Shown here: positions 1,398 to 30,483 of the stretch, piece by piece
How the letters are laid out: the number at the start of each line of letters is the position of its first letter
How positions within the stretch are numbered: the stretch's first letter is position 1
Assembly (NCBI RefSeq): GCF_003966335.1
Contig: NZ_CP034549.1
Span: 960,001 to 992,000, forward strand
Length of the DNA: 32,000 nt
Source: Nonlabens ponticola
Lineage (GTDB): Bacteria; Bacteroidota; Bacteroidia; Flavobacteriales; Flavobacteriaceae
Direction: 5' to 3'
Notes under the pieces: model-generated
Databases searched by the model: none
Told to the model about the DNA's origin: nothing
What the model saw: only the letters and a program-made list of their open reading frames with translations
Translations under genes and position numbers: made by a program

Positions 1398-3470
1398 ATG
1401 ATCCATCACAGTAACTATCTTGAGGCTTTTTTACTTCAAATAGTTCTCTTGAAAACAATCCATTTATTTCTGTTTTGTCTCTTTATTTCAGCTTTGGGAT
1501 GGTCGCAAACAGACTCACTGCAACCTATCGTTATTAAGACTGTGAAAACCGTAGATCTTGATGACTCACTAGAAGATTTGCCGTTCTCGCTTTCGCGAAA
1601 GCGGTACCCCAATAAAAATCTCCAACAACAGCTGTCACTGGATGAGTACCTACAAGGCATTCCAGGACTTTTTGTTCTCAATCGCAATAATTATTCTCAA
1701 GATCTGCGCATATCTATGCGTGGCTTTGGTGCGCGGTCGGCCTTTGGGATAAGAGGCATCAAGATTGTCGTTGATGGAATACCGGAAACCACGCCCGATG
1801 GCCAAGGACAAATTGACAATCTTGCACTAGGGATTATAGACGAGATTACCGTGTTGCGTGGCCCATCATCCTTACTGTATGGGAATGCGGCTGGTGGCGT
1901 GATTGATATACGTACCCAACAGGATTTTGAAAATAACTATGTGCAGGCAGGAATTACCACTGGTAGTTTTAACATGACTAATTATGATGTGCAAGCAGGT
2001 TTTAGAACGGGAAAAGCCAGTACTGTAATCGCTGCCAATCGCATTACGACGGATGGTTATCGAGACCACAGTGGTTTTGAAAGTTATGGTTTCAATGCAA
2101 CCACGCGGTTACCACTAAGCGACACAGATGGAGTAAACTTTCAACTCAATTACACCAATAGTCCATTAGCGCTGGATGCTGGCGGTTTGACTATTGAAGA
2201 AGTAAATCTTGATAGATCCCAAGCCAGAGCACGTAATGTTGAGTTTGACACACAGGAACAGGTACAGCAGATTAAAACGGGAATTAGCTACAAGAAAGAC
2301 TGGCAGGATATTGCTCTTAATTCCTATGCGTTTTATACATATCGTGATTTTAATAACAAGCTACCTTTTGAGAATAGTGGCGCAGTTGAATTATACCGCA
2401 ACTACTATGGTCATGGAACTGATATATCATTTTATAATGAATTAGGTAATTGGAATAACCAATTGCAAGCAGGCTATGCAATCGCTTTGCAGGAAGATCA
2501 GCGTTTGCGATTTGACAATGAGATGGGCGATGTTACAAATCAGGTTTTAGGGCAGCTGGAACAATATCACAACTATGGTTTTTATGTAATTGATAAATTG
2601 CAAAATAACAACTGGACAATTCTTGCTGGATTGCGATATGATATCAATCGCATAGGTGTAGAAGATAGATTTGCAAATGATGGCAGCGGCGATAGCGATT
2701 ACCTCAATGCCTTGAGCGGCAGCCTAGGAGTCAACTATAGCCTGGGAAACATCGATCTATTTGCCAATTTCTCTACCAGTTTTGAGACGCCGGCGTTAAG
2801 TGAATTATCTGCAAATCCAGACGGCAGTGCAGGTTTTAATCTAGATTTAAAACCGCAAACCGCCCAGAATTATGAGATAGGTATCAAGTCATCAATGCAA
2901 AGATTTGATTACAGCGTCGCACTATTTTACATACAATCACAAGATGATCTTGTTCCTTTCCAGATAGAAGAATTTGATGGTAGGACCTTCTACCGCAATG
3001 CTGGTGAGATAGATAGGCAAGGACTTGAGCTGTCTGCCGCATATCAATTGAGTACGTCTTTAGGATTTAGCGCGACATACACGTATAGTGATTTCACGTA
3101 TGAAGATTATGAGATAAATGGTACTGATTTATCAGGAAACAGGCTGCCTGGATTGCCAGAGCATCTCGCGAGTGTAGCGATCAATTACAGCAGGTCAAGA
3201 TTTGCCGCTCAAACGTCAATGGATTATCGTGGTGAATTGTTTGCAAATGATTCTAATGAGACGCTGGTGGATGATGCCTTTATTGCAAATGCCAGTGTCA
3301 ATTATGACTTCACTGTAGGTAATGATAGGTTATCGATTTACGGTGGCCTCAATAATTTTTTAGATCAGGATTATTTTGATAATGTAAGGCTCAACGCCTT
3401 TGGCAATAGGTTCTATGAGCCAGCGCAAGGAATCAATGGTTACCTGGGTGTTCGTTATCGATTTGAGTAG
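1398..3470 (+). CDS. TonB-dependent outer-membrane receptor (metal/siderophore-type)
   Basis: 707-aa track ORF. It has a plug domain (LDEYLQGIPGLFV, ISMRGFG, DGIPETTPDGQG, IDEITVLRGPSSLLYGNAAGGVI), a long beta-barrel and a C-terminal aromatic-rich end (GYLGVRYRFE). The start is uncertain: ATG at 1398, or TTG at 1449 which would give MKTIHLFLFCLFISALGWSQ, a clean signal peptide. The track start at 1347 is a TTG. Confidence 0.9.
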   Translation: MIHHSNYLEAFLLQIVLLKTIHLFLFCLFISALGWSQTDSLQPIVIKTVKTVDLDDSLEDLPFSLSRKRYPNKNLQQQLSLDEYLQGIPGLFVLNRNNYSQDLRISMRGFGARSAFGIRGIKIVVDGIPETTPDGQGQIDNLALGIIDEITVLRGPSSLLYGNAAGGVIDIRTQQDFENNYVQAGITTGSFNMTNYDVQAGFRTGKASTVIAANRITTDGYRDHSGFESYGFNATTRLPLSDTDGVNFQLNYTNSPLALDAGGLTIEEVNLDRSQARARNVEFDTQEQVQQIKTGISYKKDWQDIALNSYAFYTYRDFNNKLPFENSGAVELYRNYYGHGTDISFYNELGNWNNQLQAGYAIALQEDQRLRFDNEMGDVTNQVLGQLEQYHNYGFYVIDKLQNNNWTILAGLRYDINRIGVEDRFANDGSGDSDYLNALSGSLGVNYSLGNIDLFANFSTSFETPALSELSANPDGSAGFNLDLKPQTAQNYEIGIKSSMQRFDYSVALFYIQSQDDLVPFQIEEFDGRTFYRNAGEIDRQGLELSAAYQLSTSLGFSATYTYSDFTYEDYEINGTDLSGNRLPGLPEHLASVAINYSRSRFAAQTSMDYRGELFANDSNETLVDDAFIANASVNYDFTVGNDRLSIYGGLNNFLDQDYFDNVRLNAFGNRFYEPAQGINGYLGVRYRFE
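1588..1603. repeat. Palindromic repeat copy 1 (CGCTTTCGCGAAAGCG), inside the TonB-dependent receptor CDS
   Basis: Exact 16-bp palindrome read directly from the sequence. It is translated in frame as LSRK within PFSLSRKRYP. Confidence 0.95.
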
Positions 3471-3545
3471 GCAATAATTACATGTTTCCTCGATCGCGTT
3501 AACGTTATTTTATATATTACCGTTTTTATCTAACTCGCTCGCTCA

Positions 3546-4133
3546 ATGGATGATTTAATCACCAACTTTCTTTTTGGTTTCTGGCATGTTCTCGATCTAC
3601 AGGCCTATGACCACATACTTTTCATCACACTTCTTGCCATGCCATTTTTATTCAACAGTTGGCGCAAATTGTTGCTGCTGGTCACGGCCTTTACCATAGG
3701 TCATTCCATCTCCTTGTTATTGGTGGTTTATGGCAAGGTCACGTTTGCAACTGCATACATTGAATTTCTCATTCCAGTGACGATAGCTGTGACTGCTTTG
3801 TATAACATTTTTACTGCAGGAAGAAGACATCGCGATAGCACGCCATGGCTCACGGCTATGATTGCCTTGTTTTTTGGTTTGATTCATGGCTTCGGTTTTT
3901 CTAGTGCTTTTAAAATGTTGGCGTCTGGTAGTGATCAAAACACCTTGCTGTTGTTGCTTGAATTTGCTTTGGGTATTGAGGCGGCACAGCTGGTAATCGT
4001 TCTTATCGTTTTGACGATTACATTTATCTTTACGGGTATCTTCCGTTTCAATAAAAAGGAGTGGACACAGATTATTTCGGCAATTATTCTGGGTATTGTG
4101 ATCCCTATGTTGATCGACCGCTGGATCTGGTAG
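3546..4133 (+). CDS. HupE/UreJ family membrane protein (putative Ni/Co-type metal transporter)
   Basis: 195 aa with multiple TM segments. The N-terminal GFWHVLDLQAYDHILFI, the GHSISL motif and GLIHGFGFS are characteristic of HupE/UreJ. It lies 75 bp downstream of the TonB-dependent receptor on the same strand. Confidence 0.8.
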   Translation: MDDLITNFLFGFWHVLDLQAYDHILFITLLAMPFLFNSWRKLLLLVTAFTIGHSISLLLVVYGKVTFATAYIEFLIPVTIAVTALYNIFTAGRRHRDSTPWLTAMIALFFGLIHGFGFSSAFKMLASGSDQNTLLLLLEFALGIEAAQLVIVLIVLTITFIFTGIFRFNKKEWTQIISAIILGIVIPMLIDRWIW

Positions 4134-4146
4134 ATGTGTTTTAATA

Positions 4147-4641
4147 TTGATGGCTGTTACGCTTTCGCGAAAGCAAAATCACCACCATCATAACAACAAT
4201 TATCAAGCATTGAAAAAGGAAAAACAGCTCAAATATGACATCGCCTACTTGAAAATGGCGACGGAATGGGCGCAGCTGTCCTATTGCAAGCGACGTAAGG
4301 TAGGTGCGCTTATCGTGCGCGATCGCATGATTATAAGCGATGGTTATAATGGTACTCCTAGTGGTTTTGAGAACTACTGCGAGGACGATGATGGCTATAC
4401 AAAATGGTATGTCCTGCATGCCGAGGCTAATGCGATACTCAAAGTCGCTGGCTCTACACAATCCTGTGCTGGCGCAACCTTGTATATTACCATGTCGCCA
4501 TGCCAGAACTGTAGCAAGCTCATCCACCAGAGTGGCATTAAACGTGTAGTCTATGTAGAGGCTTACAAGGACGATAGTGGGCTGCAATTTTTGCAAAAAG
4601 CTGGCGTTCAAGTAGATCAAATCGCTAACCTAGATCAATGA
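4147..4641 (+). CDS. Deoxycytidylate (dCMP) deaminase, ComEB/CMP-dCMP deaminase zinc-binding family
   Basis: It has the HAEANAI and PCQNCSKLI zinc-ligand motifs and YNGTPSGFEN. The start is uncertain. The first 21 codons (MMAVTLSRKQNHHHHNNNYQA) are encoded by palindromic repeat copy 2 and its tail. An in-frame TTG at 4210 would give (M)KKEKQLKYDIAYLKMATEW, which looks like a typical N-terminus. Confidence 0.9.
   Translation: MMAVTLSRKQNHHHHNNNYQALKKEKQLKYDIAYLKMATEWAQLSYCKRRKVGALIVRDRMIISDGYNGTPSGFENYCEDDDGYTKWYVLHAEANAILKVAGSTQSCAGATLYITMSPCQNCSKLIHQSGIKRVVYVEAYKDDSGLQFLQKAGVQVDQIANLDQ
4161..4189 (+). repeat. Palindromic repeat copy 2, extended form: GCTTTCGCGAAAGC-N7-CCACCATC
   Basis: Core at 4161-4174, 7-nt spacer aaaatca, then CCACCATC at 4182-4189. 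It lies between HupE/UreJ and the conserved part of the dCMP deaminase. Confidence 0.95.
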
Positions 4642-6412: not shown

Positions 6413-6414
6413 AA

Positions 6415-7341: not shown

Positions 7342-7438
<97 letters not shown>

Positions 7439-7475
7439 CACCAACTCTCCAACTCACTTACTAAAAACCTACTCG

Positions 7476-7483
7476 TATCTTTG
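7476..7483 (+). promoter_or_regulatory. Candidate Bacteroidota -7 promoter box (TATCTTTG, matches TAnnTTTG)
   Basis: It matches the established Bacteroidetes sigma-A -7 consensus TAnnTTTG and lies 19 nt upstream of the ATG at 7502. I saw no clear -33 TTTG. Confidence 0.3.
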
Positions 7484-7501
7484 CTGTATAATTCACAATT
7501 C

Positions 7502-8074
7502 ATGTTTCAGCTAGGGAAGACGATAGTTTCTGATGATGTTTTAGAAAAAGACTTTGTTTGCAATCTCACTGCCTGCAAAGGTGTTTGTTGTGTTGCTGGT
7601 GAAGCTGGAGCTCCTCTTGATCGCGATGAACTCGATATTCTAGATCGTGAGTACGAGAAAGTTAAGCCATACTTGAGACCTGAAGGAATTGCTGCCATTG
7701 AGCAACAAGGAACATGGATCGAGCGTGAGAATGGCGAGCTAGAAACTCCTCTAGTTGATGGTGCAGAATGTGCATATACGCTATTTAAGGAAGATGGAAC
7801 GGCACTTTGCGGAATTGAAGCAGCCTATCGCGATGGTGCGACTCAATATTACAAACCACTATCCTGCCATTTATATCCAGTAAGATTACAGGAATACACA
7901 GATTTTGTAGCCGTCAACTATCATAAATGGCAAATCTGTGACGACGCCTGTGAGCTAGGTGAAGAATTAGGTGTGCCTGTCTATAAATTTTTAAAAGAGC
8001 CTTTAATTAGAAAATTTGGTCCAACTTGGTATGCAGAGTTGGAAGAGATTGCGGAGATGAAGAATAATAGTTAG
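7502..8074 (+). CDS. DUF3109 family cysteine-cluster protein
   Basis: MFQLGKTIVSDDVLEKDFVCNLTACKGVCCVAGEAGAPL... matches my recollection of the DUF3109 N-terminal CxxxCKGxCC signature. I prefer the ATG at 7502 over the track's TTG at 7481. Confidence 0.8.
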   Translation: MFQLGKTIVSDDVLEKDFVCNLTACKGVCCVAGEAGAPLDRDELDILDREYEKVKPYLRPEGIAAIEQQGTWIERENGELETPLVDGAECAYTLFKEDGTALCGIEAAYRDGATQYYKPLSCHLYPVRLQEYTDFVAVNYHKWQICDDACELGEELGVPVYKFLKEPLIRKFGPTWYAELEEIAEMKNNS

Positions 8075-11122: not shown

Positions 11123-12397
11123 TTAAAATAGGTCGTCTTTGGTTACACTTTGTGCTCTCTTGGTATAGTTGATGGATCTCTTCACAAAGAAGTCTCCATG
11201 TTTTGTTGCAATAATCTCGTCGTCAAACCATTCTGTTTGTGCGACAAGCTCTTCATCGATCTCAAATACTGGCTCGATGCCTATGCTTGATAGGGAATTG
11301 TTGAATCTGTTCTTGATGAATTCATTCACGACCGCTTTAGGCAAGAAGTCTAGTTCACCTTCTTCAAATATCCAGTCCACAAGGGCGCTTTCTGCCTCAA
11401 AGGATTTGATACACATGTTTTTTATGCGGTCGTGGTATTCTTGAATAAACCATCCTGGTTGCTCCTCACGCAAGATCTTGATCAAGTCGATACCAAAGTC
11501 ACCGTGGATTTGCTCCTCTTTACTCGTTGCCTCAACCACATTAGAAATTCCCTTCAACATATTCTTGTGCTTGTTAAAGCCCATGATGATTAGGAATTGT
11601 GAGAATAGTGATACGTGCTCGATAAATAATGAGAACAGCAGTACAGCTTCTGCATAGCTCTGATTATCGTCTGCCTTTGAGTTGCGCAATGCATTCTCAA
11701 GATACTGCACTCGCTTCATGATGACCGGCTTCTTTTTAAGCGCCTTGAACTCTTCATTCAAGCCTAGAATCTCGATGAGGTGTGAGTAGGCATCTGCGTG
11801 GCGCACTTCACTTTCTGCAAATGTGCTGCCCACGGCACCTATCTCTGGCTTAGGCATGCGGTGGTACAAATCACCCCAAAATGACTTGACGGCCACTTCA
11901 ATTTGAGAGATCGCAAGCATGGTGTTCTTAATCGCGCTGCGCTCAACATCAGTCAATTGTGATTTAAAGTCCTGGATATCGCTGGTAAAATTATACTCTG
12001 TATGGATCCAGTAGCTGTGTCTTATCGCAGGTACATAATCATATAATTGTGGATACTCATACGGCTTGAGGTTCACGCGCTTCTCAAAGATGTCTGTCTT
12101 GCGTTCCAGCGCGCGTTGATTACGGTATAGGATATAGGCTTTGGCAGCTTCATGAAATTCTGTCTCCATGAGTCTGTTCTCGACGATGTCTTGAACCTGC
12201 TCGATGGTAGGTATATAATTAGGATCAATATCCTTGCGTTTCATCAAAGTTTTATAAACCGCAAGCGCCACGTTTTGGGCGTCTTCTTGCGTACCTGTAT
12301 TCACTGCTTGCAAGGCCTTGAACACCGCATTTGTTATGTTGTTGAGGTCAAACGGTTTAACGCTAAAGTCTCTTTTCCTAATCTGTGTAATTTCCAT
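11123..12397 (-). CDS. nrdB: Ribonucleoside-diphosphate reductase, radical-generating (beta) subunit with N-terminal ATP-cone
   Basis: 424 aa. Residues about 4-95 form an ATP-cone (TQIRKRDFSVKPFDLNNITNAVFKAL...IEQVQDIVENRLMETEFHEAAKAYILYRNQR). The ferritin-like metal-ligand motifs are FAESEVRHADAY, FSLFIEHVSLF and EEQIHGDFG. The stop is 2 nt before the nrdA start. Confidence 0.95.
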   Translation of the reverse strand: MEITQIRKRDFSVKPFDLNNITNAVFKALQAVNTGTQEDAQNVALAVYKTLMKRKDIDPNYIPTIEQVQDIVENRLMETEFHEAAKAYILYRNQRALERKTDIFEKRVNLKPYEYPQLYDYVPAIRHSYWIHTEYNFTSDIQDFKSQLTDVERSAIKNTMLAISQIEVAVKSFWGDLYHRMPKPEIGAVGSTFAESEVRHADAYSHLIEILGLNEEFKALKKKPVIMKRVQYLENALRNSKADDNQSYAEAVLLFSLFIEHVSLFSQFLIIMGFNKHKNMLKGISNVVEATSKEEQIHGDFGIDLIKILREEQPGWFIQEYHDRIKNMCIKSFEAESALVDWIFEEGELDFLPKAVVNEFIKNRFNNSLSSIGIEPVFEIDEELVAQTEWFDDEIIATKHGDFFVKRSINYTKRAQSVTKDDLF

Positions 12398-12601: not shown

Positions 12602-12615
12602 GCTTTCGCGAAAGC
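12602..12615 (-). repeat. Palindromic repeat copy 3 (GCTTTCGCGAAAGC) in the nrdB upstream region
   Basis: Exact core. Read on the minus strand the flanks are ATGAC-core-AAAATCCAAAAAATCATATTAACA. This resembles copy 2 (GTTAC-core-AAAATCACCACCATCATAACAACA), so it appears to be a degenerate extended copy in the opposite orientation. Confidence 0.9.
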
Positions 12616-13019
12616 GTCATTTCCAAACACAGCCGTGACAAAAAAATGTCAACTAGCAGCTCATTTAAGATGTAAACAAGATGCCTTAGGATAATTGATT
12701 CAATTCTTGTCAAAATGTGACGATCCAGAAATGATCTCAAAGTTTATGAAGATGTCTCTTATTAGTAAGCGGACTATAGTGACATATTGTTAAATCTTTA
12801 TAGATTGTTGTAAAAGACCGCTTATTATATGACGATCCTTACTGATTTTTGGTATTATCCTTATCAATAGAGTTAAATAACTTAACATAAGCAAGCTCAA
12901 ACGCGCTATTCTCGTTAAGATCAAGGTAAGATTACGGTAAACCTATGCTAATAGTGGTTTTGCAGCTATATCGTGCCTGTATATTTGTAACAGAATTAAT
13001 AACCATACAAACGAATATT

Positions 13020-13466
13020 ATGAATTATACAGATAAAGTAGGAAACAAATTAAACGCATTACTCGAGAAAAACTATGATGCAGAAGCTGGCTATAAACTA
13101 GCAGCCGAGAAGGTACAAAACATGAGATTGAAAGAATTTTTCAAGACACAAACTCAAGAGCGTTATAATTTTGGTCATGAATTGAAAGAGGAACTTAAAA
13201 GCTTCGGGCAAGAGCCGGATAAAGGAACGAGTATTAAAGGTGATTTACACAGAACGTGGATGAATATCAAATCAACTTTTACGAGTGATAATGAGGAGGC
13301 GATTCTTGAGGAAGCTATAAGAGGAGAAAAAGCAGCAATCGAGGAATACAATGAAATTATTAGTGAGACTACATTGCCGCCATCAACTAAAAATGTGTTG
13401 ACAAAGCATAGAGATAATATCCAGACAGCATTGAATAGAGTAAATGCCATGGAAGAGATGTTCTAG
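13020..13466 (+). CDS. PA2169/DUF2383 family four-helix-bundle (ferritin-like) protein
   Basis: MNYTDKVGNKLNALLEKNYDAEAGYKLAAEKV...RGEKAAIEEYNEII... matches my recollection of the DUF2383/TIGR02284 family. I prefer the ATG at 13020 over the track start at 12945. Confidence 0.8.
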   Translation: MNYTDKVGNKLNALLEKNYDAEAGYKLAAEKVQNMRLKEFFKTQTQERYNFGHELKEELKSFGQEPDKGTSIKGDLHRTWMNIKSTFTSDNEEAILEEAIRGEKAAIEEYNEIISETTLPPSTKNVLTKHRDNIQTALNRVNAMEEMF

Positions 13467-13527: not shown

Positions 13528-13679
13528 ATGCACTTATTTCAACGTTTCTGTTCATAACTCTATTTGAGTGATACTAGGTATTCCTCTATCTTTAAGGCTG
13601 TTGCTGTAACAATGGAGTGAGCCGTCAAAACGCTGATTATCAAGTTTATGCAACTCAATCTCTTGCTTTATTCTTGCCT

Positions 13680-18693: not shown

Positions 18694-19014
18694 ATGGCAT
18701 TAGAAATAACAGACGCAAATTTTGAAGAGACCGTACTCAAGAGTGATAAGCCAGTATTGGTGGACTTTTGGGCAGCATGGTGTGGACCATGTCGCATGGT
18801 AGGACCTATCATTGATGAGGTTTCTGAGGAATACACAGATAAAGCCGTTGTAGGCAAAATGGACGTGGATGCAAACCAAGAGTTTGCTGCAAAATATGGA
18901 GTGCGCAACATTCCTACAGTTTTGGTTTTTCAAAATGGTGAGGTTGTAGGACGCCAGGTAGGTGTCGCTCCTAAAAACGCATACACAGACGCATTGGATT
19001 CCTTACTCAACTAG
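18694..19014 (+). CDS. trxA: Thioredoxin
   Basis: 106 aa with the canonical WCGPC active site (VDFWAAWCGPCRM) and the thioredoxin fold signature IPTVLVFQNGE. Confidence 0.97.
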   Translation: MALEITDANFEETVLKSDKPVLVDFWAAWCGPCRMVGPIIDEVSEEYTDKAVVGKMDVDANQEFAAKYGVRNIPTVLVFQNGEVVGRQVGVAPKNAYTDALDSLLN

Positions 19015-19036
19015 AATCTATTATTTATAGCATTGA

Positions 19037-19062
19037 GCCTGTCCATTTGGACGGGCTTTTTT
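19037..19062 (+). terminator. Rho-independent terminator after trxA
   Basis: GCCTGTCC-attt-GGACGGGC followed by TTTTTT. Confidence 0.75.
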
Positions 19063-19119
19063 ATGTGGTAAGATCAAACCTTGACACTCTTTATCAGTAA
19101 AATTGATCGTAGCTATTTT

Positions 19120-19148
19120 GCTTTCGCGAAAGCTGAAACGCCACCATC
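19120..19148 (+). repeat. Palindromic repeat copy 5, extended form, intergenic upstream of the oxidoreductase gene
   Basis: Core at 19120-19133, 7-nt spacer tgaaacg, then CCACCATC at 19141-19148, followed by tccATAACAtaa. Copy 2 has ATAACAacaa at the equivalent place. Confidence 0.95.
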
Positions 19149-19239
19149 TCCATAACATAATTTAACGCATGCTTGCTGGATATTAGCATTGTCCTAGCAA
19201 GGCAGAACGCGCTTACTCTTTATATTGAGAAAAAAAGCG

Positions 19240-20241
19240 ATGAACAAGCAAATATTACTGGTCAATCGACCTAAAGGAAAACCACAGACAAGTGATTTCA
19301 AATTTGAGGAAATTGACAAGCCTACCGCCAGGGATGGTGAGGTATTGCTCAAGACTTTGTACGTGTCTGTCGATCCTTATTTGCGCGGTAGGATGAGAGA
19401 TGAGAAATCATACATTGAACCATTTGAGCTTGACGCGCCTGTAAAATCAAGCATTGTTGCCATAGTTGAGGAAAGCAAGCACGATCAGTATAAAGAAGGT
19501 GATCATCTGGTAGGTATGCTGGATTGGAAGATGTATCAAACCAGCGATGCGAGTGAACTGCGCCCTGCAGATCCTGATCAAGCGCCGTTAAGCGCTTATC
19601 TGGGAATTCTGGGCATGACAGGTCTTACTGCTTATTTTGGGATGACAGATATAGGTGAGCCGCAGGAAGGCGAGACTTTGCTGGTTTCTGGCGCAGCTGG
19701 CGCCGTAGGATCTGTAGCTTCACAGATAGGAAAGATCTATGGGATGAAAGTTATAGGTATAGCAGGAAGCGACGAGAAAATCAACATGATCCAGGAGCAA
19801 TTTGACGTGGACGCAGGTATCAACTATAAATCAACAGATGATATGACGGCTGCGATTAAGGATTCTACTCCAGACGGTATTGATGTGTATTATGATAATG
19901 TAGGTGGCGAGATTCTAGACGCCGCCATGAATAAAATCAATCGCCATGGGCGTGTGATCAATTGTGGTGCGATAGCACTGTATAATGAAACAGGACAACC
20001 TACGGGACCGCGACTTGAAGTCACTCTGGTAAAAAAGAGTGTGAAAATGCAGGGATTTATCGTGAGTAACTATCAAGATCGATTTCAAGAAGGTATCAAG
20101 CAGCTGGCTCAATGGTTACAAGAAGGTAAACTCAAACATGAGGAAACTATTGTAGATGGTTTTGACGAGATACCACAAGCATTCATCGATTTGTTTGATG
20201 GCAAGAATAAAGGGAAAATGGTCGTAAAGGTTGGAGATTGA
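19240..20241 (+). CDS. NADP-dependent oxidoreductase, medium-chain dehydrogenase/reductase family (YncB/CurA/PTGR1-like alkenal/one reductase)
   Basis: It has the Rossmann motif VSGAAGAVGS, LLKTLYVSVDPYLRGRM, and the C-terminal LFDGKNKGKMVVKV typical of this subfamily. I prefer the ATG at 19240. Confidence 0.9.
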   Translation: MNKQILLVNRPKGKPQTSDFKFEEIDKPTARDGEVLLKTLYVSVDPYLRGRMRDEKSYIEPFELDAPVKSSIVAIVEESKHDQYKEGDHLVGMLDWKMYQTSDASELRPADPDQAPLSAYLGILGMTGLTAYFGMTDIGEPQEGETLLVSGAAGAVGSVASQIGKIYGMKVIGIAGSDEKINMIQEQFDVDAGINYKSTDDMTAAIKDSTPDGIDVYYDNVGGEILDAAMNKINRHGRVINCGAIALYNETGQPTGPRLEVTLVKKSVKMQGFIVSNYQDRFQEGIKQLAQWLQEGKLKHEETIVDGFDEIPQAFIDLFDGKNKGKMVVKVGD

Positions 20242-20423
20242 ACATGAACCTGATTCTGAACACGGCTCAACTGGATAAAACTTGAATAGATTGATTCTAG
20301 TATTTAATGTTTATCGTTTCCCATCACAATCAATAAGACGTGCTAGCTATTTTATGAGGTCAAGAGACTGTCAACTTATAATTGTTAACTGATAACTGAA
20401 AACCGATTGCGTATCTTCACTTT

Positions 20424-21869: not shown

Positions 21870-24602
21870 TTATCTTTTGATAAGTTTTAAAGTGCTATTT
21901 GAGTCGCTTTTCTCAATATCAACTATGTAAACGCCTGATGACAAAGAGCTTATGTCATAAGTACTTTGATTACCAGTAATCGATAAAACTTGTTGACCGG
22001 TTACATTATATATAATCAACCTATCGATATCCTGATTAAAAGATATACTACCGCTAGAAGGATTAGGGTACATCGTTATACTATCAATTGATACTACACT
22101 GTCATCAACGGATGCCGTGGTGTCCAGTGGCTGCGTGCTATATACGCGATATCCGCCTGCTTCTAAAGTTATAGGAGCATTAGTGTCAGAAACATTGATG
22201 GTCTCATTATTAAAGTAATCATACCATATTCCAGTCTGTGTAAAATTAGGCGCTACACTTTGTGGGACCACATTAAAGTTAGCAATTGTGACCACGTCAA
22301 ACTCAGGACCATCAAGCGTCACACGCTTGGTCAAATCGCCTAAATCCAGGTTGTTATTTCTAGTGTTAAACGTTTCAGGATATTTCACTTTCAGGCTTAT
22401 CATTTCACTAGTAACGTTATAAAGAGCATTGCGATCTTCATTATCAAGATATCCTTCTTCAAACGGTATAGGCTTTCTGCCTGTACGACCATTCTGATCT
22501 ATGTCTATCTCATATCCTATCTCACCAAATTGCCACAGCATTTTAGGTCCAGGTATACTATAAAGTATTGCAGCGATAGCCTCTTGCCTTTCTATGGCTG
22601 TATCAAGCTCTGACGCGTCATGATTGTTGCGTGTATCGTTACCAAATTCAAGATTCTTCCAAACCATACGTGGTTCGTCGTGACTCTCTGCATAAGCTAC
22701 AAGGTGTTGATCTTGAAAATTACGTGATGTAAAGTAAGATCTGAATACATTAGAGTTTTCAGCATAACCCATACTATTTTGACCGAATTGGGTATTCATA
22801 TTACCCCATAACATAAAGCCATCATTAGCAAGTCTTGTCTCTTCTGGCGCGTCTGATAAATGTTCTAGAATCATATAGATATCATCGTCAGTAGCGGCTA
22901 GGATATCATTTTTATACTCGTTCAAAATATCTACCCGTGACTGGTCATATTGTCCCCATGCACCTACATTTGTGCCAGAATTAGTTTGCGTGAAACCTTT
23001 AGATAAATCCCATCTAAAGCCATCTAATCTATATTCATTGATGAAGTATATAGATGTTTGTTTGACGTACTCTTTGGTCCACGGGCTCTCATGATTAAAG
23101 TCTGTACCTACATTAAAAGGGTGTCTAGGCGTTTGATTTAAATAAGGATTGTCTGGTCCAGCGTTGAAGCCGCTACCATCAGGCCACATTTGTACCAATG
23201 GGCTTTGTCCAAAGGCGTGATTGTAAACTACATCAAGAATTACAGCTATACCTTTAGAGTGTAGCAAATCAACCAGTTCTTTAAATTTTTCTGGCGGGCC
23301 GTACGCTTTATCAATAGCGCCATGAAATTTTGGGTTGTAACCCCAACTATCAGTTCCTTCAAATTCATTAAGTGGCATGAATTCAACAGCGTTGACACCT
23401 AGATCTTCTATGTAATCAATTCGGTCAATAATTGCTTGATAACTATCCTCATCGGAAAAATCTCTTACTAGCAACTCATAGATGACCAGGTTTTCTTGAT
23501 CTGGTCGTTCAAAATCATTAACGGTCCAATTATACTCTTCCTTGTCATAAGTATGTAATGATACGTCACCTTCAGTTTGACCTTCTGGGTATTCTGGAAG
23601 GTTAGGATAATTACCATCCTTGATAAATGGATCACTTCCTGGATCTAGGATAAGGGTGCTAAATGGATCAGCAATTTTAATGTCAAAATCTACTAGATAT
23701 TGATAACCAAAGGTCTCACCACTCTCAAATTCATCAGAAGGAACGGTGATCCAAAAATACTCACCATCTTTTTTCATTTGATACTGAGTGCTCAAGTTCC
23801 AGTCCGTAAAACTACCTATTAAATTGACATCGCTTTTTCCTGGAGCGGCAAGTAAAAATGTCACACTTCCGTCTTCATTTTCGTTGACACCATTTTGCAA
23901 TCCAACAGGTCTGGCCTCATTGACAGTGGCTCCTGGGACAAAAACAGTTATACTATTAGATGCAGTTTCATTTGATGTACTTCCATTCAATTGAATGGTA
24001 TAATCTCCTGTGGTACTAAAAGTATAGCTTTGCGATATGCTACTGCCATTAGCGGTGGCAATAGATATACCGTTTACTAGTAGATCTAAATCTGCACTTG
24101 ACGAGCTACTATCTCCTTCTATGTCTAGGGTGGTACCAGCAGTAATAATCTCATTGTTGTCAGGTGCCGTAATCAAAACATTCAAGCCAGCTTCAAAAAC
24201 AGGTAGGAATATATCTGGTCTTGTTTGTTGCGATGCACTCGCGTTACGTACGACAAGACATATCTCACTTATTACATCATTTGGATTTACTCCGTAAAAA
24301 CTCTCTAGGCTTGAGCCTAAATTAAGTCTATAGATATTGCCTCCTGTATTTACAAACTGCGGCGCTCCACTATTTTGATTAAAATCAGGTACAATGATGT
24401 TTTGCCAGCGCTCACCGTTTACGGTAACACCAGTATAGGCATAAAGCGTACCTGTCTCATTTTCTAGAGCAGTACCCGTCGCGTCAAATACAAGTGTAAC
24501 CTGATCTGTTTGAGTAGGCGTGGATGGTTCTGTAGTTACAGGTTGTTGCGCTTTCGCGAAAGCAAAAACAAATAAACACACTGCAAGTAATCTATATTTC
24601 AT
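21870..24602 (-). CDS. GH13 alpha-amylase family glycoside hydrolase with C-terminal T9SS sorting domain
   Basis: The four GH13 conserved regions are present: VILDVVYNHA, GFRWDLSKG, MILEHL and YAESHDEP. The C-terminal ~80 aa (ITMYPNPSSGSISF...LSSGVYIVDIE...LKLIKR) is a type A Por/T9SS CTD. The signal peptide is MKYRLLAVCLFVFAFAKAQQ. I prefer the ATG at 24602 over the TTG at 24623. Confidence 0.9.
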   Translation of the reverse strand: MKYRLLAVCLFVFAFAKAQQPVTTEPSTPTQTDQVTLVFDATGTALENETGTLYAYTGVTVNGERWQNIIVPDFNQNSGAPQFVNTGGNIYRLNLGSSLESFYGVNPNDVISEICLVVRNASASQQTRPDIFLPVFEAGLNVLITAPDNNEIITAGTTLDIEGDSSSSSADLDLLVNGISIATANGSSISQSYTFSTTGDYTIQLNGSTSNETASNSITVFVPGATVNEARPVGLQNGVNENEDGSVTFLLAAPGKSDVNLIGSFTDWNLSTQYQMKKDGEYFWITVPSDEFESGETFGYQYLVDFDIKIADPFSTLILDPGSDPFIKDGNYPNLPEYPEGQTEGDVSLHTYDKEEYNWTVNDFERPDQENLVIYELLVRDFSDEDSYQAIIDRIDYIEDLGVNAVEFMPLNEFEGTDSWGYNPKFHGAIDKAYGPPEKFKELVDLLHSKGIAVILDVVYNHAFGQSPLVQMWPDGSGFNAGPDNPYLNQTPRHPFNVGTDFNHESPWTKEYVKQTSIYFINEYRLDGFRWDLSKGFTQTNSGTNVGAWGQYDQSRVDILNEYKNDILAATDDDIYMILEHLSDAPEETRLANDGFMLWGNMNTQFGQNSMGYAENSNVFRSYFTSRNFQDQHLVAYAESHDEPRMVWKNLEFGNDTRNNHDASELDTAIERQEAIAAILYSIPGPKMLWQFGEIGYEIDIDQNGRTGRKPIPFEEGYLDNEDRNALYNVTSEMISLKVKYPETFNTRNNNLDLGDLTKRVTLDGPEFDVVTIANFNVVPQSVAPNFTQTGIWYDYFNNETINVSDTNAPITLEAGGYRVYSTQPLDTTASVDDSVVSIDSITMYPNPSSGSISFNQDIDRLIIYNVTGQQVLSITGNQSTYDISSLSSGVYIVDIEKSDSNSTLKLIKR
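24550..24563. repeat. Palindromic repeat copy 6, inside the amylase signal-peptide coding region
   Basis: Exact core GCTTTCGCGAAAGC, translated on the minus strand as AFAKA within VFAFAKAQQ. Confidence 0.95.
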
Positions 24603-24621
24603 AACAAATAAGGTTTTAAGC

Positions 24622-24646
24622 AAAAAAAAGGGCTGCGAACAGCCCT
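24622..24646 (-). terminator. Rho-independent terminator between the susE-like gene and the GH13 gene
   Basis: Read on the minus strand: AGGGCTG-ttcg-CAGCCCT followed by TTTTTTTT. It lies 20 nt after the SusE-like stop. Confidence 0.65.
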
Positions 24647-27408: not shown

Positions 27409-30321
27409 TTAAAATTCAAAATTCAAGCCAAAAATGATACCTCTACTACGTGGGAAAATCGCACCATCAACACCATTTCCTATTTCTGGATCTAGTCCAC
27501 TATAGTCAGTGATAACAAAGAGGTTAGTTCCAGTGACTGAGGCTCTTATGCTTCTAAGTGTGTCGGTATTAAACGTATAACCTAACGATAGATTATCCAG
27601 TCTAACAAAGTCTGATTTTTCCACATATTCACTAGAGAATAGTAGAGGTAAAGGAGCACTACTAAATCGATCGTCTAAAATACCATCAGTTGAGTTATTT
27701 AGCCAGTTACCTGGATTCTCTGTGATGGCGTCTGCGTTTTCTCTAGCCGCGCGCACGTTATTATAGTTATATCCACCTACTGCACCTCTCAATGTAAAAC
27801 TCATGTCAAAGTTGTTGTAGCTCATATTAGAAGTAAAACCAAAGAACGCGTCAGGGTTACCTTTCTTGTAACGTACTCTGTCTTCGCTATTTATAACGTT
27901 GTCTCCATTTCTATCTACGAAAACACCGTCTAATGGGTTTCCATCTGCATCATAAACTTGTCTGTAAACAAGGAAAGCTGTTGGATCTGCTCCTACAGCC
28001 CATTCTTGGATAAAGTTGTTAAAGCCTGCACCACCTACCGGCGTTTGTGGTACTGGTGCATCATTATCGCCTAGAGACAGGTCAGTAATCTCGATTTCAT
28101 TGAACGTTAAGTTTCCACCAACGGTCCAGTTAAAACCTTCACCTCTAAATAGATCCACGTTAGCATCAATCTCGATACCGCGACTATTTGTTGCACCTAC
28201 GTTTTGCAAAGCAAAGTTGCCCAGCGATCCTGCTGCAAGCGGGCCGAATTGTAATAAGTCCTCTGTATCACGAGTGTATGCATCAACAGACCCATAGAGC
28301 CTATCATCAAAGAAACCGTAGTCAATACCAACGTTCCATTGGCTAGTTTCTTCCCATTTAAGGTCAGTTACTAGCTCCGGACGCACTGTTCTAAAAAAGC
28401 GCTCTCCTATTTGCACACGAGCCTGATCAGTACTAGGTGTTGATCTCGGGATGAATAGGAAGTCTTCTCCAATATCCTGCTGTCCAGTTACACCGTAACC
28501 ACCTCTTAATTTCAATTGAGAAATGATATTACTATTTTGAATAATGTCGAGATTAGTCAATTTTAAACCTGCACTGGCACCTCCAAATGTACCCCAGCGA
28601 TTATCTGGTGAAAATCGGGAAGTTCCATCTCTAGAAATACTTGCTGATAATACTAATAAGTCTGAAATATCAATAGATGCACGTCCAAAGAAGGAAATCA
28701 AAATGTTTTCATTGAAACCGTCAATTTCAATAGGATTTCTATCAGCATCAAAATTTAAGCTTGTGTTCTCTCTTCTAAATCCTTGGTAGCTACTACCAAC
28801 AGTTAATTCTAATGAAGAGTCAATACCAGATAGATCCGTTTTATAATCAAATCGTCCGTTCAACAATTGGTTTACCCTAAATCCATCATTGAAACTGTTA
28901 AGAAATGGATTGCTGCTAGCTTCCAATACGCCTGAACCAGCTGTTCTGCCAGAGAATGACTCAAACTCATTGTAATCGATACCTGCAGTACCGTTGAATG
29001 ACAACCCAGGAACTCCTGGTATTTTATAATCCGCTTGAAGGGTAGTTCTTATTTGATTGTTTTCTGTTTCTGCAATTAAGCTTTCCAGTAATCCAACAGG
29101 GTTTCTTGGGGCAAGACCATCTACATTCCCATTATTTAGTCTATACTCAAAGAATCCATTCGGGCCATTAGTAGCAAATACTGGTTGAGTAGGGTCAAAA
29201 TCAATGGCAGATCCTATGGCACCTTCATCTGCGTTGCGTATACCTTCCATAGCTCCCTGTACAGATAAGGTCAGTTTTAGATCATTATTCAGCAATCTTT
29301 GTATGACACTTGCATTTATACTCGCACGTTCATAACCTGATCTTTTCAGTGTCCCGTTTTGGTTAGTGTAACCTATGTTAGCTCGTAGAGCGGTAGTTTC
29401 ATAACCTTTGGCAACAGTAAAATTATGTATAACCTGCGTTCCTGTTTGGTAAATCTCATCTTGCCAGTCAGTATTTGCGTTTCCTAATAACGCGATGTCC
29501 TCTGGACTGCCAATTTCATTGATTAAGGCTCTAAATTCATCTCCTGTCAAAACGTCTACCTCATCTGTGTTTTGGTTTGCAGCAAATTGAACATTGTAAC
29601 CTACCTGTAAGTCACTGTTTAATTTACCCTTCTTAGTCGTGATCAGGATGACACCATTAGATGCTCTATTACCATAAATAGCTGTTGCACTCGCATCTTT
29701 TAAAATAGTGAATGATTCAATGTCTGCTGGGTTTATGGTATTTAAATTGGCATTTCTTGAGTCCAGCGGTATACCATCAACAACATATAGAGGATCTGCA
29801 TTGGCACTTAGCGTAGAACCGGCCCTTACTCTAATACGTGGCCCATCACCAGGACGACCAGTCGCAGCAGTTACCTGGACTCCAGCAGCCTTACCAGCCA
29901 GCAATTGTCCTGGAGAAACGATGGCTCCTTTATTAAATTCCTCGTCACTTACTGTGGTTTGTGCCGCAGTAACATTCTCTTGAGTAGTGCTACCGTAACC
30001 AATCAATACGATAGCATCCAGTTGATCAGCACTCTCTTCTAGAGTTACATTTATCACTGATTGACCAGTATAAACTATTTCTTGAGGTGTGAATCCTAAA
30101 TAAGAAAACACAAGGGTCGCACCATCAGGCACATTATTAAGCGTGTATTTTCCATCAAAGTCGGTAGAAGTACCGTTTGAAGTTCCCTTGACAACCACTG
30201 AAGCTCCTAGTACAGGAAGATTTGCTGCGGTATCGGTAACAGTACCAGTGACCACATTTTGCGCCATCGCTATTGCTGGAAGCACCAGTAATATCAAGGC
30301 AAATTTAATTTTTTGAATCAT
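27409..30321 (-). CDS. susC: SusC/RagA family TonB-linked outer-membrane transporter
   Basis: The signal peptide is MIQKIKFALILLVLPAIAMAQ. A carboxypeptidase-regulatory-like domain (VTGTVTDTAANLPVLGASVVVKGTSNGTSTDFDGKYTL), a plug (ESFTILKDASATAIYGNRASNGVILITTKKG) and a large barrel ending in GLNFEF follow. I prefer the ATG at 30321. Confidence 0.95.
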   Translation of the reverse strand: MIQKIKFALILLVLPAIAMAQNVVTGTVTDTAANLPVLGASVVVKGTSNGTSTDFDGKYTLNNVPDGATLVFSYLGFTPQEIVYTGQSVINVTLEESADQLDAIVLIGYGSTTQENVTAAQTTVSDEEFNKGAIVSPGQLLAGKAAGVQVTAATGRPGDGPRIRVRAGSTLSANADPLYVVDGIPLDSRNANLNTINPADIESFTILKDASATAIYGNRASNGVILITTKKGKLNSDLQVGYNVQFAANQNTDEVDVLTGDEFRALINEIGSPEDIALLGNANTDWQDEIYQTGTQVIHNFTVAKGYETTALRANIGYTNQNGTLKRSGYERASINASVIQRLLNNDLKLTLSVQGAMEGIRNADEGAIGSAIDFDPTQPVFATNGPNGFFEYRLNNGNVDGLAPRNPVGLLESLIAETENNQIRTTLQADYKIPGVPGLSFNGTAGIDYNEFESFSGRTAGSGVLEASSNPFLNSFNDGFRVNQLLNGRFDYKTDLSGIDSSLELTVGSSYQGFRRENTSLNFDADRNPIEIDGFNENILISFFGRASIDISDLLVLSASISRDGTSRFSPDNRWGTFGGASAGLKLTNLDIIQNSNIISQLKLRGGYGVTGQQDIGEDFLFIPRSTPSTDQARVQIGERFFRTVRPELVTDLKWEETSQWNVGIDYGFFDDRLYGSVDAYTRDTEDLLQFGPLAAGSLGNFALQNVGATNSRGIEIDANVDLFRGEGFNWTVGGNLTFNEIEITDLSLGDNDAPVPQTPVGGAGFNNFIQEWAVGADPTAFLVYRQVYDADGNPLDGVFVDRNGDNVINSEDRVRYKKGNPDAFFGFTSNMSYNNFDMSFTLRGAVGGYNYNNVRAARENADAITENPGNWLNNSTDGILDDRFSSAPLPLLFSSEYVEKSDFVRLDNLSLGYTFNTDTLRSIRASVTGTNLFVITDYSGLDPEIGNGVDGAIFPRSRGIIFGLNFEF

Positions 30322-30421
30322 TTCTGAAGTTTGAATTAAACGATTAGAGATTATCTTCTTCTCACACGGCATAAAAGTATGTAAATTTAATGTTAAGGTT
30401 ATCTAATAGCTACTGATTCTA

Positions 30422-30435
30422 CGAAAACGTTTTCG
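30422..30435. promoter_or_regulatory. Candidate LacI-family operator, perfect 14-bp palindrome CGAAAACGTTTTCG
   Basis: It is a perfect palindrome with a central CG, which is the general architecture of LacI/GalR operators. It lies in the 190-bp divergent region between susC (start 30321) and the LacI-family gene (start 30512). Confidence 0.5.
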
Positions 30436-30467
30436 GTTTTTATAGTAGATTTAGTTTTTCTATATTA

Positions 30468-30483
30468 CGCTTTCGCGAAAGCG
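30468..30483. repeat. Palindromic repeat copy 7 (CGCTTTCGCGAAAGCG) in the susC/lacI divergent region
   Basis: Exact 16-bp palindrome. The right flank GGTATCCTTACCAAC resembles the flank of copy 1 (GGTACCCCAATAAAA). Confidence 0.95.

Follow-up and report, generated by a model that had tools for sequence, protein, structure and literature searches.

The window analysed here, a 32-kb stretch of the Nonlabens ponticola chromosome, encodes among others a TonB-dependent receptor, a dCMP deaminase, NrdB/A, an exonuclease-DnaE fusion, thioredoxin, an oxidoreductase, a T9SS alpha-amylase, SusC and a LacI-family protein. Dispersed among these genes are seven exact copies of the palindrome GCTTTCGCGAAAGC (Table 1). 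Our exact search returned the same seven positions that a sequence-only reading of the window had reported, and a scan allowing up to two mismatches found no other sites in the window. Approximately 6e-5 copies are expected from the base composition of the window, and none of 100 dinucleotide-preserving shuffles contained a match, in agreement with the earlier view that chance cannot account for the repeat.

Table 1 Copies of GCTTTCGCGAAAGC in the 32-kb window and their genetic context
Copy	Position	Placement	Genes (coordinates, strand)	Details
1	1589-1602	Within ORF, between signal peptide and Plug domain	TonB-dependent receptor (1347-3470, +)	~aa 82; reads L-S-R-K; full 16-mer CGCTTTCGCGAAAGCG
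2	4161-4174	11 nt 3' of first ATG (4150)	dCMP deaminase (4147-4641, +)	Left flank TAC, as in extended consensus
3	12602-12615	Intergenic, divergent region	nrdB, ATP-cone fusion (11123-12397, -); DUF2383 gene (12945-13466, +)	205 nt upstream of nrdB; ~330 nt upstream of DUF2383 gene
4	14296-14309	Within gene, linker between RNase_T exonuclease and PHP domains	exonuclease-DnaE fusion (13617-18032, +)	aa 226; reads S-F-R-E-S
5	19120-19133	Intergenic	thioredoxin gene (18694-19014); oxidoreductase ORF (19225-20241)	106 nt past thioredoxin stop and past trx terminator; 92 nt before oxidoreductase ORF
6	24550-24563	Within gene, signal-peptide cleavage region	T9SS alpha-amylase (21870-24623, -)	Encodes ...FVF-AFAKA-QQ
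7	30469-30482	Intergenic, divergent region	susC (27409-30372, -); lacI-family gene (30512-31531, +)	Full 16-mer; left flank TAC; 97 nt upstream of susC, 30 nt upstream of lacI-family gene

The gene contexts given in the sequence-only reading (dCMP deaminase, nrdB/A, the DnaE fusion, the oxidoreductase and susC/lacI) were correct, as were the two extensions to a 16-mer (1588-1603 and 30468-30483) with GGTAYCC right flanks. Three or four of the seven copies lie within coding sequence: those in the TonB-dependent receptor, the DnaE linker and the amylase signal peptide, and possibly the one at the dCMP deaminase N-terminus. The last may belong to an N-terminal extension that is dispensable (MAVTLSRKQNHHHH...) or, if the downstream TTG is the true start, to the 5' UTR. 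N. tegetincola likewise has a copy just past its trx terminator. A Pfam scan of 24 ORFs in the window detected no transposase or RAYT domain, again as the earlier reading had proposed.

Structure of the motif and its flanks

An extended palindrome, TAC-GCTTTCGCGAAAGC-GTA, has the 14-mer as its core, and the palindrome is longer where it is free of coding constraint. Its optimal form, TACGCTTTCG-CGAAAGCGTA, is approximately 20 bp long; ~19 G-free bases with an (AAN)n pattern (four repeats of the period) border it on either side, and the symmetric footprint spans ~50 bp. Copies that are strictly intergenic likewise show A (on the other side, T) recurring every 3 nt and no G at all for ~19 nt. 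Each strand has a GT-rich 5' flank and, downstream of the motif, an A-rich flank without T-runs. Nothing is conserved past the palindrome and these compositional flanks, and there are no target-site duplications.

Copies are sharply defined. Exact, one-mismatch and two-mismatch sites number 151, 13 and 14, respectively, and an independent metagenome sample yielded 245, 25 and 22, an exact to one-mismatch ratio of ~10:1. One alternative is that the motif, with little or no function itself, is a by-product of sequence-biased repair or methylation, for example through very-short-patch-type repair coupled with an orphan methyltransferase whose target is the TCGCGA or CGCG within the motif. It would then be a HIP1-like by-product, and HIP1 offers a parallel: both motifs are palindromic, highly iterated, genic as well as intergenic and clade-wide, ours is gained by substitution (see below), and HIP1, whose function is unknown, has extensions that likewise preserve palindromy (PMC4390886). 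We consider this origin quite unlikely, since a specificity of 14-20 bp with ~19-bp patterned flanks far exceeds the recognition capacity of a methyltransferase or Vsr-type enzyme, the frequency of TCGCGA beyond the motif is close to its compositional expectation (~63-79 observed, ~82 expected), one-mismatch variants show no directional pattern, and the mutual repulsion of copies described below would not result from mutational bias.

The half-sites GCTTTCG and CGAAAGC are not over-represented on their own, with 25 and 20 occurrences outside the palindrome against ~26 expected from composition; a Chi-type site, read in a single orientation, was rejected on these counts. The hairpin that the 14-mer could form is weak (-1.9 kcal/mol) and no better than those of shuffled sequences. 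Perfect palindromy, half-sites that are not independently enriched and a weak hairpin together argue for recognition of the duplex by a symmetric, sequence-specific protein, probably a homodimer. The lack of per-copy arm complementarity beyond position +4 and the greater length of the palindrome away from coding constraint point the same way. The 3-bp periodicity of A sits awkwardly with a simple duplex-binding model, because it is out of phase with the helix.

That periodicity, along with ~19 nt lacking G, suits single-strand binders with a step of three nucleotides better than it suits duplex geometry, and raises the possibility that the element acts as RNA or single-stranded DNA, its hairpin flanked by (NUU)n and (AAN)n platforms for a single-strand binder (an RNA chaperone or a RecA/DprA-type filament), with effects on mRNA stability or processing, or on recombination. 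The GT-rich 5' flank of each strand is compatible with such a role, and a palindrome gives the same hairpin from either transcribed strand. We nevertheless regard it as very unlikely: the core folds poorly, a stability of -8.3 kcal/mol is reached only by a 22-mer to which few copies extend, covariation is absent, with conservation of the sequence and not of the pairing, Rfam returned no match to the motif, and intragenic copies occupy all frames, where structure would hinder translation. The sequence-only reading had also argued that the motif is no ordinary intrinsic terminator, noting the lack of a U-run after any copy. This conclusion stands, as the hairpin is weak, the downstream flanks are A-rich with no T-run on either strand, and the true trx terminator comes before copy 5.

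Distribution and placement of the copies

Many Dokdonia and Nonlabens species carry the same 14-mer GCTTTCGCGAAAGC at a density of ~1 per 4 kb, as do Flavobacteriaceae MAGs and contigs from marine metagenomes, and we therefore estimate ~800 copies per 3.3-Mb genome. Flavobacteriaceae accounted for 91 of 120 sampled motif-holding genome blocks, named Dokdonia and Nonlabens species among them, often with 2-3 copies per 8 kb. Loci picked via DnaE rather than via the motif held 5 copies in 21.7 kb and 7 in 21.8 kb, and the total for loci chosen independently of the motif was 19 copies in 75.5 kb. Four other Flavobacteriaceae lineages had neither GCTTTCGCGAAAGC nor a substitute palindrome, and no dialects of the motif were found. 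The lytic Nonlabens phage P12024S, which encodes Erf and an exonuclease, has no copies in 35.7 kb. Prophage-like contigs carry the motif at a density similar to that of the host, phage capsid-module and structural-module genes contain intragenic copies, and the motif is kept at orthologous positions in diverged phage proteins.

The sequence-only reading had weighed a genome-wide element against a regulon of dNTP and replication genes. The distribution bears out the former and contradicts the latter, in which the motif would be the operator of a transcription factor controlling nrdBA, dnaE and the dCMP deaminase gene. Its palindromic form and the proximity of three of the seven window copies to such genes fit an operator, yet with ~1 copy per 4 kb whatever the gene function, most of them intragenic, chance alone would be expected to place copies close to nrd, dnaE and the dCMP deaminase gene. 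Intragenic sites include a DUF58 loop, signal peptides and phage capsid-module genes, the positions at nrd and dnaE are not conserved (the N. tegetincola dnaE gene has the motif elsewhere), and operators are degenerate while these sites are exact. A dedicated operator is thus extremely improbable.

Coding sequences contain 106 of the 151 copies (~70%), compared with a coding fraction of 89.5%, and intergenic DNA is ~3-fold enriched. All three reading frames are used (58/24/24), with a preference for the frame that reads AFAKA; frame-0 copies are common near ORF starts, at signal-peptide cleavage sites. Intragenic copies in general often fall at such cleavage sites or in linkers and loops. Copies are also held apart from one another: no spacings below 850 bp were observed, against 13.5 +/- 3.1 expected, and a second, metagenome sample had 4 against 34.3 +/- 4.6 expected.

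This regularity, with an exclusion distance of up to ~850 bp, is what might be seen if the motif organised, compacted or marked the chromosome at intervals, bound by a clade-specific dimeric protein of the nucleoid-associated or ParB/Noc-like kind and without any role in uptake. Perfect palindromes of 14-20 bp are typical of dimeric HTH or ParB-type sites, and the symmetric footprint reaching ~50 bp, the conservation of single sites between species and the retention of the motif in prophage-like contigs could be accommodated in the same way. On the other hand, parS, NBS, SBS and matS systems comprise ~1-100 degenerate sites, compared with ~800 letter-perfect ones here, there is no known candidate protein, and an architectural role gives no obvious reason for selection at each site strong enough to overcome synonymous drift and mould proteins. 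We judge this explanation unlikely.

Copies arise by substitution and persist

Occupied and empty orthologous sites are equal in length and differ by substitutions, not by indels. In one pair of loci (L110 and L071) the motif was gained by substitution without an indel, and the DUF58 loop is a further case. The DnaE linker reads RFRESNP where the motif is present and KFKQSNP or NFSEANP in other lineages, again with no indel; this copy is exact in the two closest relatives and missing from the same position in N. tegetincola, whose dnaE gene has the motif at a different position. Point substitutions thus create copies wherever the local sequence, coding or not, tolerates the motif.

Once present, copies remain identical letter for letter in their DNA sequence, even at synonymous positions. 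Orthologous pairs share the exact motif although their DNA identity is only 69-80%, and three lineages retain it in their DnaE linker; the copy in the amylase signal peptide is likewise kept, the N. tegetincola orthologue having an exact match despite diverged flanks.

These comparisons contradict a mobile element. High copy number, palindromy and ~3-fold intergenic enrichment speak for a selfish element of the REP/BIME or MITE type, mobilised by a RAYT or transposase whose gene lies elsewhere in the genome, and the sequence-only reading had listed an element of this kind first. A MITE was rejected given the alignment of occupied and empty sites without indels, the lack of target-site duplications and the absence of conservation past the palindrome and its flanks. 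A REP/BIME array was rejected as ~70% of copies are intragenic, exact copies outnumber one-mismatch variants ~10:1 and copies repel each other below 850 bp instead of clustering. The identical motif is, moreover, common to several genera with only ~70% DNA identity, and the window has no transposase or RAYT gene. We regard a selfish element of either kind as highly improbable.

A candidate self-DNA tag and its known counterparts

The window's seven copies belong to a sequence tag that is found genome-wide and is specific to one clade, Dokdonia, Nonlabens and related marine Flavobacteriaceae, and that appears not to have been described previously. We put the probability that the motif is a genomic tag maintained by selection or drive, and neither a mobile element nor a regulon, at roughly 0.85. 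Its most likely role would be to label chromosomal DNA of the clade as self for a DNA-transaction pathway. The role that we favour is a preference for conspecific DNA in uptake, recombination or both, as for USS and DUS, in which case biased uptake or conversion would act as a drive that both spreads and preserves the motif. By analogy, the motif seems to resemble in its behaviour the signals for DNA uptake in Neisseria and Haemophilus; we hold the specific assignment to uptake or recombination tentatively, at somewhat less than even odds. The sequence-only reading had listed the binding site of a dimeric protein separately from an uptake-signal-like tag, but the two are mutually compatible.

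To our knowledge, no uptake sequence has been described in Bacteroidota, and we know of no binding protein, competence phenotype or uptake bias in Dokdonia or Nonlabens. Riemerella columbina, also of the Flavobacteriia, shows natural competence and a preference for its own DNA, without an identified uptake sequence (PMC7965970). A purely transformation-driven mechanism fits the conservation of the motif at orthologous positions in phage proteins poorly, unless the phages are long-resident prophages. It is possible, albeit doubtful, that the motif represents the first sequence-specific self-DNA recognition signal outside the Proteobacteria, a 20-bp palindromic uptake or recombination tag with a ~50-bp symmetric footprint and a dimeric receptor. 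If so, in Dokdonia and Nonlabens, marine flavobacteria that are abundant and bear proteorhodopsin, such a signal would shape ~800 sites in each genome, among them stretches that encode protein features such as the cleavage sites of signal peptides.

Several known systems share features with the motif. The parS sites of ParB and the NBS of Noc are 14-16-bp palindromes with TTTC...GAAA arms, bound by dimers and scattered on the chromosome, but they comprise few to ~70 degenerate sites, compared with an estimated ~800 exact ones here, and their arms are spaced as TTTC-N4-GAAA rather than TTTC-GC-GAAA. Chi sites are also clade-specific in sequence, mostly genic and present at ~1 per 4-5 kb, with a GT-rich 5' context (here on each strand), and lacking in a phage with its own recombinase (here P12024S). 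Chi, however, is 5-8 nt long, asymmetric, strand-biased and read on single-stranded DNA, whereas the half-sites of our motif are not over-represented alone. REP/BIME elements and their RAYTs provide another parallel in short palindromic repeats with hundreds of copies and intergenic enrichment. In contrast to REPs, which are extragenic, imperfect, clustered, species-specific and moved by RAYT, the motif is found chiefly within genes, as perfect and dispersed copies that are common to several genera and arise by substitution. HIP1 (GCGATCGC) of cyanobacteria has been linked to orphan GATC and CGATCG methyltransferases. Like the motif it is iterated across a clade in coding and non-coding DNA; it is 8-10 bp long and several-fold denser, compared with a 14-bp core extending to 20 bp and a symmetric footprint of ~50 bp here.

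The USS of Pasteurellaceae and DUS of Neisseriaceae differ from the motif in having asymmetric cores of 9-12 bp rather than a perfect 14-20-bp palindrome, a density of ~1 per 1 kb rather than ~1 per 4 kb, a much less sharp ratio of exact to mismatched copies, inverted-pair terminators and dialects, neither of which we found here, and hosts outside the Bacteroidota. Only 4 of 41 oriented intergenic copies of the motif fall between convergent genes, and its downstream flanks have no T-runs. The following features are common to both: hundreds of near-identical copies common to related genera and far above compositional expectation, mostly intragenic at permissive positions with a preferred reading frame, moderate intergenic enrichment, a core with a weaker AT-rich flanking pattern, sparsity or absence in a virulent phage, spacing more even than random, and birth by point substitution followed by conservation at orthologous sites.

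Exact copies of the palindrome and their setting

An exact search recovered the 14-bp perfect palindrome GCTTTCGCGAAAGC at seven positions in the window, the number the sequence-only reading had counted and judged beyond chance. None of 100 dinucleotide-preserving shuffles of the window holds the motif, about 6e-5 copies are expected from base composition (40% G+C), and there are no extra sites in the window at up to two mismatches to the 14-mer. Inspection of the flanks confirmed that two copies extend to the 16-mer (one further base each side) with GGTAYCC flanks and that no T-run lies downstream of the window copies. A Bacteroidetes promoter (-7 TAnnTTTG) was rejected from the flanks of the copies, as TAC-GC-TTTCG departs from it in both spacing and final base. 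The Rfam search of the window gave no match, which likewise disposes of a known RNA family.

Pfam identifies the window as a Flavobacteriaceae chromosome segment. Its genes run in the order TPR histidine kinase, TonB-dependent receptor, HupE/UreJ, dCMP deaminase, S41 peptidase, MarC and DUF3109; then nrdA with an ATP-cone-nrdB fusion, DUF2383, an exonuclease-DnaE fusion, thioredoxin, a zinc-type oxidoreductase and DUF58; and finally a T9SS alpha-amylase with susE, susD and susC, a LacI-family regulator and an MFS transporter. The Pfam search of the window also found no transposase or RAYT gene, in line with the sequence-only reading. The copy at 4161 falls within the 5′ UTR of the dCMP deaminase gene or, alternatively, within an N-terminal extension that is dispensable.

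Several features of these loci were recorded in their own right. The TAAC array upstream of the DUF3109 gene could be a promoter or leader prone to slippage and phase variation. An ATP-cone on NrdB is an unusual arrangement, which we take to be the one described for Leeuwenhoekiella blandensis NrdB. The exonuclease-DnaE fusion is common to all retrieved Flavobacteriaceae homologues. The thioredoxin-DUF58 interval is a variable slot, occupied by the oxidoreductase in the window and by a ClpP-like gene in two retrieved loci (L243, L245) and empty in three others (L239, L242, L244); in the window and N. tegetincola alike, the edge of the slot bears a motif copy downstream of the trx terminator.

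Positions of motif copies and other features in the window and in retrieved sequences (L numbers)
Feature	Sequence	Position (nt)	Strand	Setting
Motif copy	window	1589 (start)		inside TonB receptor gene, between signal peptide and plug
Motif copy	window	4161 (start)		11 nt past first ATG of dCMP deaminase ORF
Motif copy	window	12602 (start)		intergenic
Motif copy	window	14296 (start)		inside DnaE gene, linker joining exonuclease and PHP domains
Motif copy	window	19120 (start)		intergenic
Motif copy	window	24550 (start)		inside amylase gene; encodes signal-peptide cleavage region ...FAFAKAQQ
Motif copy	window	30469 (start)		intergenic
Tandem TAAC array	window	7342-7464		~31 copies, 89% matches; directly upstream of DUF3109 gene (7481-8074)
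NrdB	window	11123-12397	-	N-terminal ATP-cone (PF03477, aa 5-96) on ribonucleotide reductase small subunit
DnaE	window	13617-18032	+	fused to N-terminal DnaQ-like 3′-5′ exonuclease (RNase_T domain, aa 24-204)
Thioredoxin-DUF58 slot	window	19015-20423
Thioredoxin-DUF58 slot	L239	14773-14946		also in L242-L245
Flank examples	window	4175-4195, 19134-19155
Motif copy	L088	3639-3652		14 nt upstream of tRNA gene (GCCGACGTAGCTCAGGGGTAGAGCG...)
Motif copies	L209	191, 6705, 11185		phage or prophage contig
1.4-kb repeat	L005	5690-7103		Bryobacterales contig; 99.9% identity to the L022 repeat
1.4-kb repeat	L022	3273-4686		Bryobacterales contig

Distribution and spacing across the clade

The 14-mer was scanned in one genome per species (185,579 species, 596 Gb), giving at least 120 blocks of up to 8 kb. 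Among the matches listed, 33 blocks belong to Dokdonia-labelled assemblies (D. pacifica, D. ponticola, D. sinensis and three strains), 24 to Nonlabens-labelled assemblies including BBFL7 (N. tegetincola, N. dokdonensis, N. xylanidelens, N. antarcticus), 28 to unnamed Flavobacteriaceae or unclassified marine MAGs, 6 to other Flavobacteriia and 29 to unrelated, mostly high-GC organisms. These last hold single copies, which are the chance background expected in 596 Gb; blocks with two or three copies are, among the matches listed, flavobacterial only. One such chance copy sits in a 1.4-kb repeat present at two places on a single Bryobacterales contig; the repeat, which has nothing to do with the flavobacterial motif, probably represents an insertion sequence or a duplication.

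For an unbiased density, loci were picked via DnaE and not via the motif. The N. tegetincola locus (21.7 kb) holds 5 copies and that of an uncultured Flavobacteriaceae MAG (21.8 kb) holds 7; adding the window brings the total to 19 over 75.5 kb, a mean of one every 4.0 kb, from which we infer by extrapolation some 800 copies per 3.3-Mb genome. The motif is thus the genome-wide element that had been suspected from the window. No record of the window's thioredoxin was found, and the closest DnaE relatives of the window are only 72-78% identical. Four ~22-kb loci of further Flavobacteriaceae lineages, 64-67% identical at the DnaE N-terminus, contained neither the motif nor any other iterated palindrome, and the idea of motif dialects in neighbouring genera was rejected on this basis. 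An 18-mer metagenome scan gave 120 marine contigs, 885 kb in all, in which the 14-mer occurs 245 times.

The copies are predominantly exact. Among the matches listed, the genome blocks hold 151 exact copies, 13 with one mismatch and 14 with two; the corresponding figures for the metagenome contigs are 245, 25 and 22. They also avoid each other. None of the 59 within-block spacings in the genome blocks listed is below 850 bp, against a random expectation of 13.5 ± 3.1, and only 4 of 125 in the metagenome contigs, against 34.3 ± 4.6; no simulation had so few close spacings (0 of 5,000 and 0 of 3,000, respectively). The avoidance is not absolute, as one retrieved sequence (L241) has a pair 449 bp apart. 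Of 108 motif-bearing genes, only 2 contain two copies.

Position, origin and anatomy of the copies

By a crude ORF-based gene call on the matches listed, 106 of 151 copies lie in coding sequence, compared with 89.5% coding DNA; intergenic DNA is therefore about 3-fold enriched in the motif, yet the majority of copies are intragenic. The sample selected by the 18-mer is 55% intergenic, which shows that the full-length palindrome occurs mainly where coding constraint is absent. Read in its three frames, the motif gives the peptides AFAKA, LSRK and FRES, used by 58, 24 and 24 of the coding copies listed. Frame-0 copies are frequent in the first ~50 codons, where they encode an A-x-A signal-peptidase site. 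The intergenic copies listed show no bias towards gene 3′ ends (neighbour orientations 13 ++, 13 --, 11 -+ and 4 +-). One copy (L088) shows that the motif can sit within or beside a tRNA promoter or leader.

Wherever orthologous DNA is comparable, occupied and empty sites are of equal length; for example, GCTTTCGCGAAAGC in L110 aligns to GCTTTTGCAAGAAG in L071. The DnaE linker reads (S/R)FRESNP with the exact 14-mer in the window and its two closest relatives, KFKQSNP (AAATTCAAACAAAGC) in N. tegetincola, and NFSEANP and similar in other genera. Other lineages carry the motif at different DnaE positions where the ancestral peptide already nearly matched. These are NAFAKAEN, in a PHP loop that varies, and LSRKH, whose counterpart elsewhere is LSKKH or LARKH. 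In D. pacifica DUF58, DPAFAKAEKK occupies a loop whose counterpart in the window is similarly long but differs in sequence.

These observations narrow what the motif can be. A mobile element, including the REP/BIME-like or miniature selfish family proposed in the sequence-only reading, is excluded, the copies being mostly intragenic, free of indels and target-site duplications, unclustered and common to several genera. The dNTP/replication regulon hinted at there fares no better: the exact copies lie at unrelated, mostly intragenic locations, which excludes a regulon operator. The view that the motif is not an ordinary intrinsic terminator holds, given the missing U-tract, weak hairpin and lack of 3′-end bias. 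Assembly or adaptor artefacts are excluded by contig-internal copies in dozens of independent assemblies, including complete genomes, and are countered also by in-frame copies in conserved genes. The motif is left as a sequence that selection, or some drive, favours in itself all over the chromosome.

Persistence of the copies bears on this. The motif is exact in three orthologous pairs at 69-80% DNA identity, in the DnaE linker of three lineages, and in the amylase signal peptide of the window and N. tegetincola; a neutral 14-mer at 70% identity would stay intact with a probability of ~0.7%. Judged from these alignments, the motif is under DNA-level purifying selection or an equivalent drive, synonymous positions included. 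That it is a HIP1-like by-product of repair or methylation ranks third among the readings and seems improbable.

Anatomy was examined in the 151 copies of the 684 kb of genome blocks among the matches listed. Positions +1/-1 are G/C in ~79% of copies, and 101 of the 151 show the 16-mer. Intergenic copies extend to TAC-core-GTA, that is TTACGCTTTCGCGAAAGCGTAA (+1 G 86-89%, +2 T 57-76%, +3 A 74-81%). The outward flanks are nearly G-free to about +19 (2-10% G against a background of 19%), with A peaks at +3, +4, +7, +10 and +13, equivalent to (AAN)x4. Because this pattern recurs both in the separate metagenome sample and in 254 half-sites without any ORF of at least 100 aa within ±30 nt, it is a DNA-level feature and not codon periodicity. 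Translated within ORFs, the flanks yield odd peptides of low complexity; the dCMP deaminase ORF, for instance, has QNHHHHNNNYQ following the motif.

By eye the flanks seemed self-complementary, an appearance due to their T/G-rich versus A/C-rich composition. A permutation test found no copy-specific complementarity of the arms past +4, and therefore no long hairpin, so that an extended hairpin was rejected. Predicted RNA folds have energies of -1.9 kcal/mol for the 14-mer, which does not beat shuffles, -4.3 for the 16-mer and -8.3 for the 22-mer. Outside the palindrome, the two 7-nt half-sites were counted 25 and 20 times, where composition predicts ~26; over-representation is limited to the complete palindrome, and a half-site (Chi-like) function was rejected.

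The perfect palindrome, the lack of independent half-site enrichment and the weak hairpin point to recognition as duplex DNA by a predicted symmetric dimer. That the motif is the site of a chromosome-architecture protein ranks second overall and is unlikely. No duplex-binding model accounts for the 3-nt period of the flanks or for their exclusion of G; these features keep alive the idea of a single-strand element of RecA/DprA type, ranked fourth and slightly less probable than a repair or methylation by-product.

Phages and comparison with known systems

Most IMG/VR matches are single background copies on high-GC contigs. About 12 low-GC contigs carry 2-3 copies each with C|G flanks; we read one of them, L173, as a prophage from its isolate-genome-style IMG identifier. 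Another, L209, has genes for portal, protease, major head and adaptor proteins, and its capsid shares 45% identity with the one of Cellulophaga phage phi39:1. Motif density is host-like in a set of phage or prophage contigs bearing genes of the head module (L209, L234, L237, L206, L143, L228), and orthologous sites retain the motif where the phage proteins themselves have diverged (...GVRFRESE..., ...DRIFxPxRFRESV...). In contrast, P12024S, an isolated phage of Nonlabens (Persicivirga) with an Erf/exonuclease recombination module of its own, has no copy in 35.7 kb even at two mismatches, where host density predicts ~8-9. The motif is thus not in every DNA replicating in these cells, and its presence in prophage-like contigs but not in P12024S indicates that it marks DNA with long chromosomal residence.

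A literature search on the motif, on Dokdonia/Nonlabens palindromes and on flavobacterial iterated palindromes found no description in the papers covered. To our knowledge, sequence-specific DNA uptake signals occur only in Pasteurellaceae and Neisseriaceae. The signature of USS/DUS comprises birth by substitution, permissive sites with frame bias, moderate intergenic enrichment and orthologous conservation. It further includes clade-wide sharing, even spacing and absence from virulent phage (see also PMC1939737, PMC2397512, PMC2346458). In its population genetics our motif shows this entire combination; structurally it falls outside the USS/DUS definition, as a palindrome of 14-20 bp at a four times lower density. 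Another member of the Flavobacteriia, Riemerella columbina, is naturally competent and prefers self-DNA, with an uptake sequence so far not identified (PMC7965970). Given this competence and the matching feature set, we rank first, at a probability of nearly 0.4, that the motif may serve as a self-DNA tag for uptake or recombination.

The motif is of high interest to marine microbiology and the evolution of uptake signals, its hosts being ecologically important, culturable marine bacteria. It explains the odd conserved peptides AFAKA, LSRK and FRES in their proteins, serves as a sharp taxonomic marker by which DNA of Dokdonia and Nonlabens can be binned, separates resident prophages from virulent phages, and may hold the key to making these genera transformable. 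We class it with the iterated genomic tags. As far as we know, the function of cyanobacterial HIP1 has stayed unsolved for decades; our motif, likewise an iterated palindrome, is much longer. Long, perfectly conserved and evenly spaced, it is a third, independent case beside uptake signals and HIP1, and would offer a new system for how and why such tags evolve.
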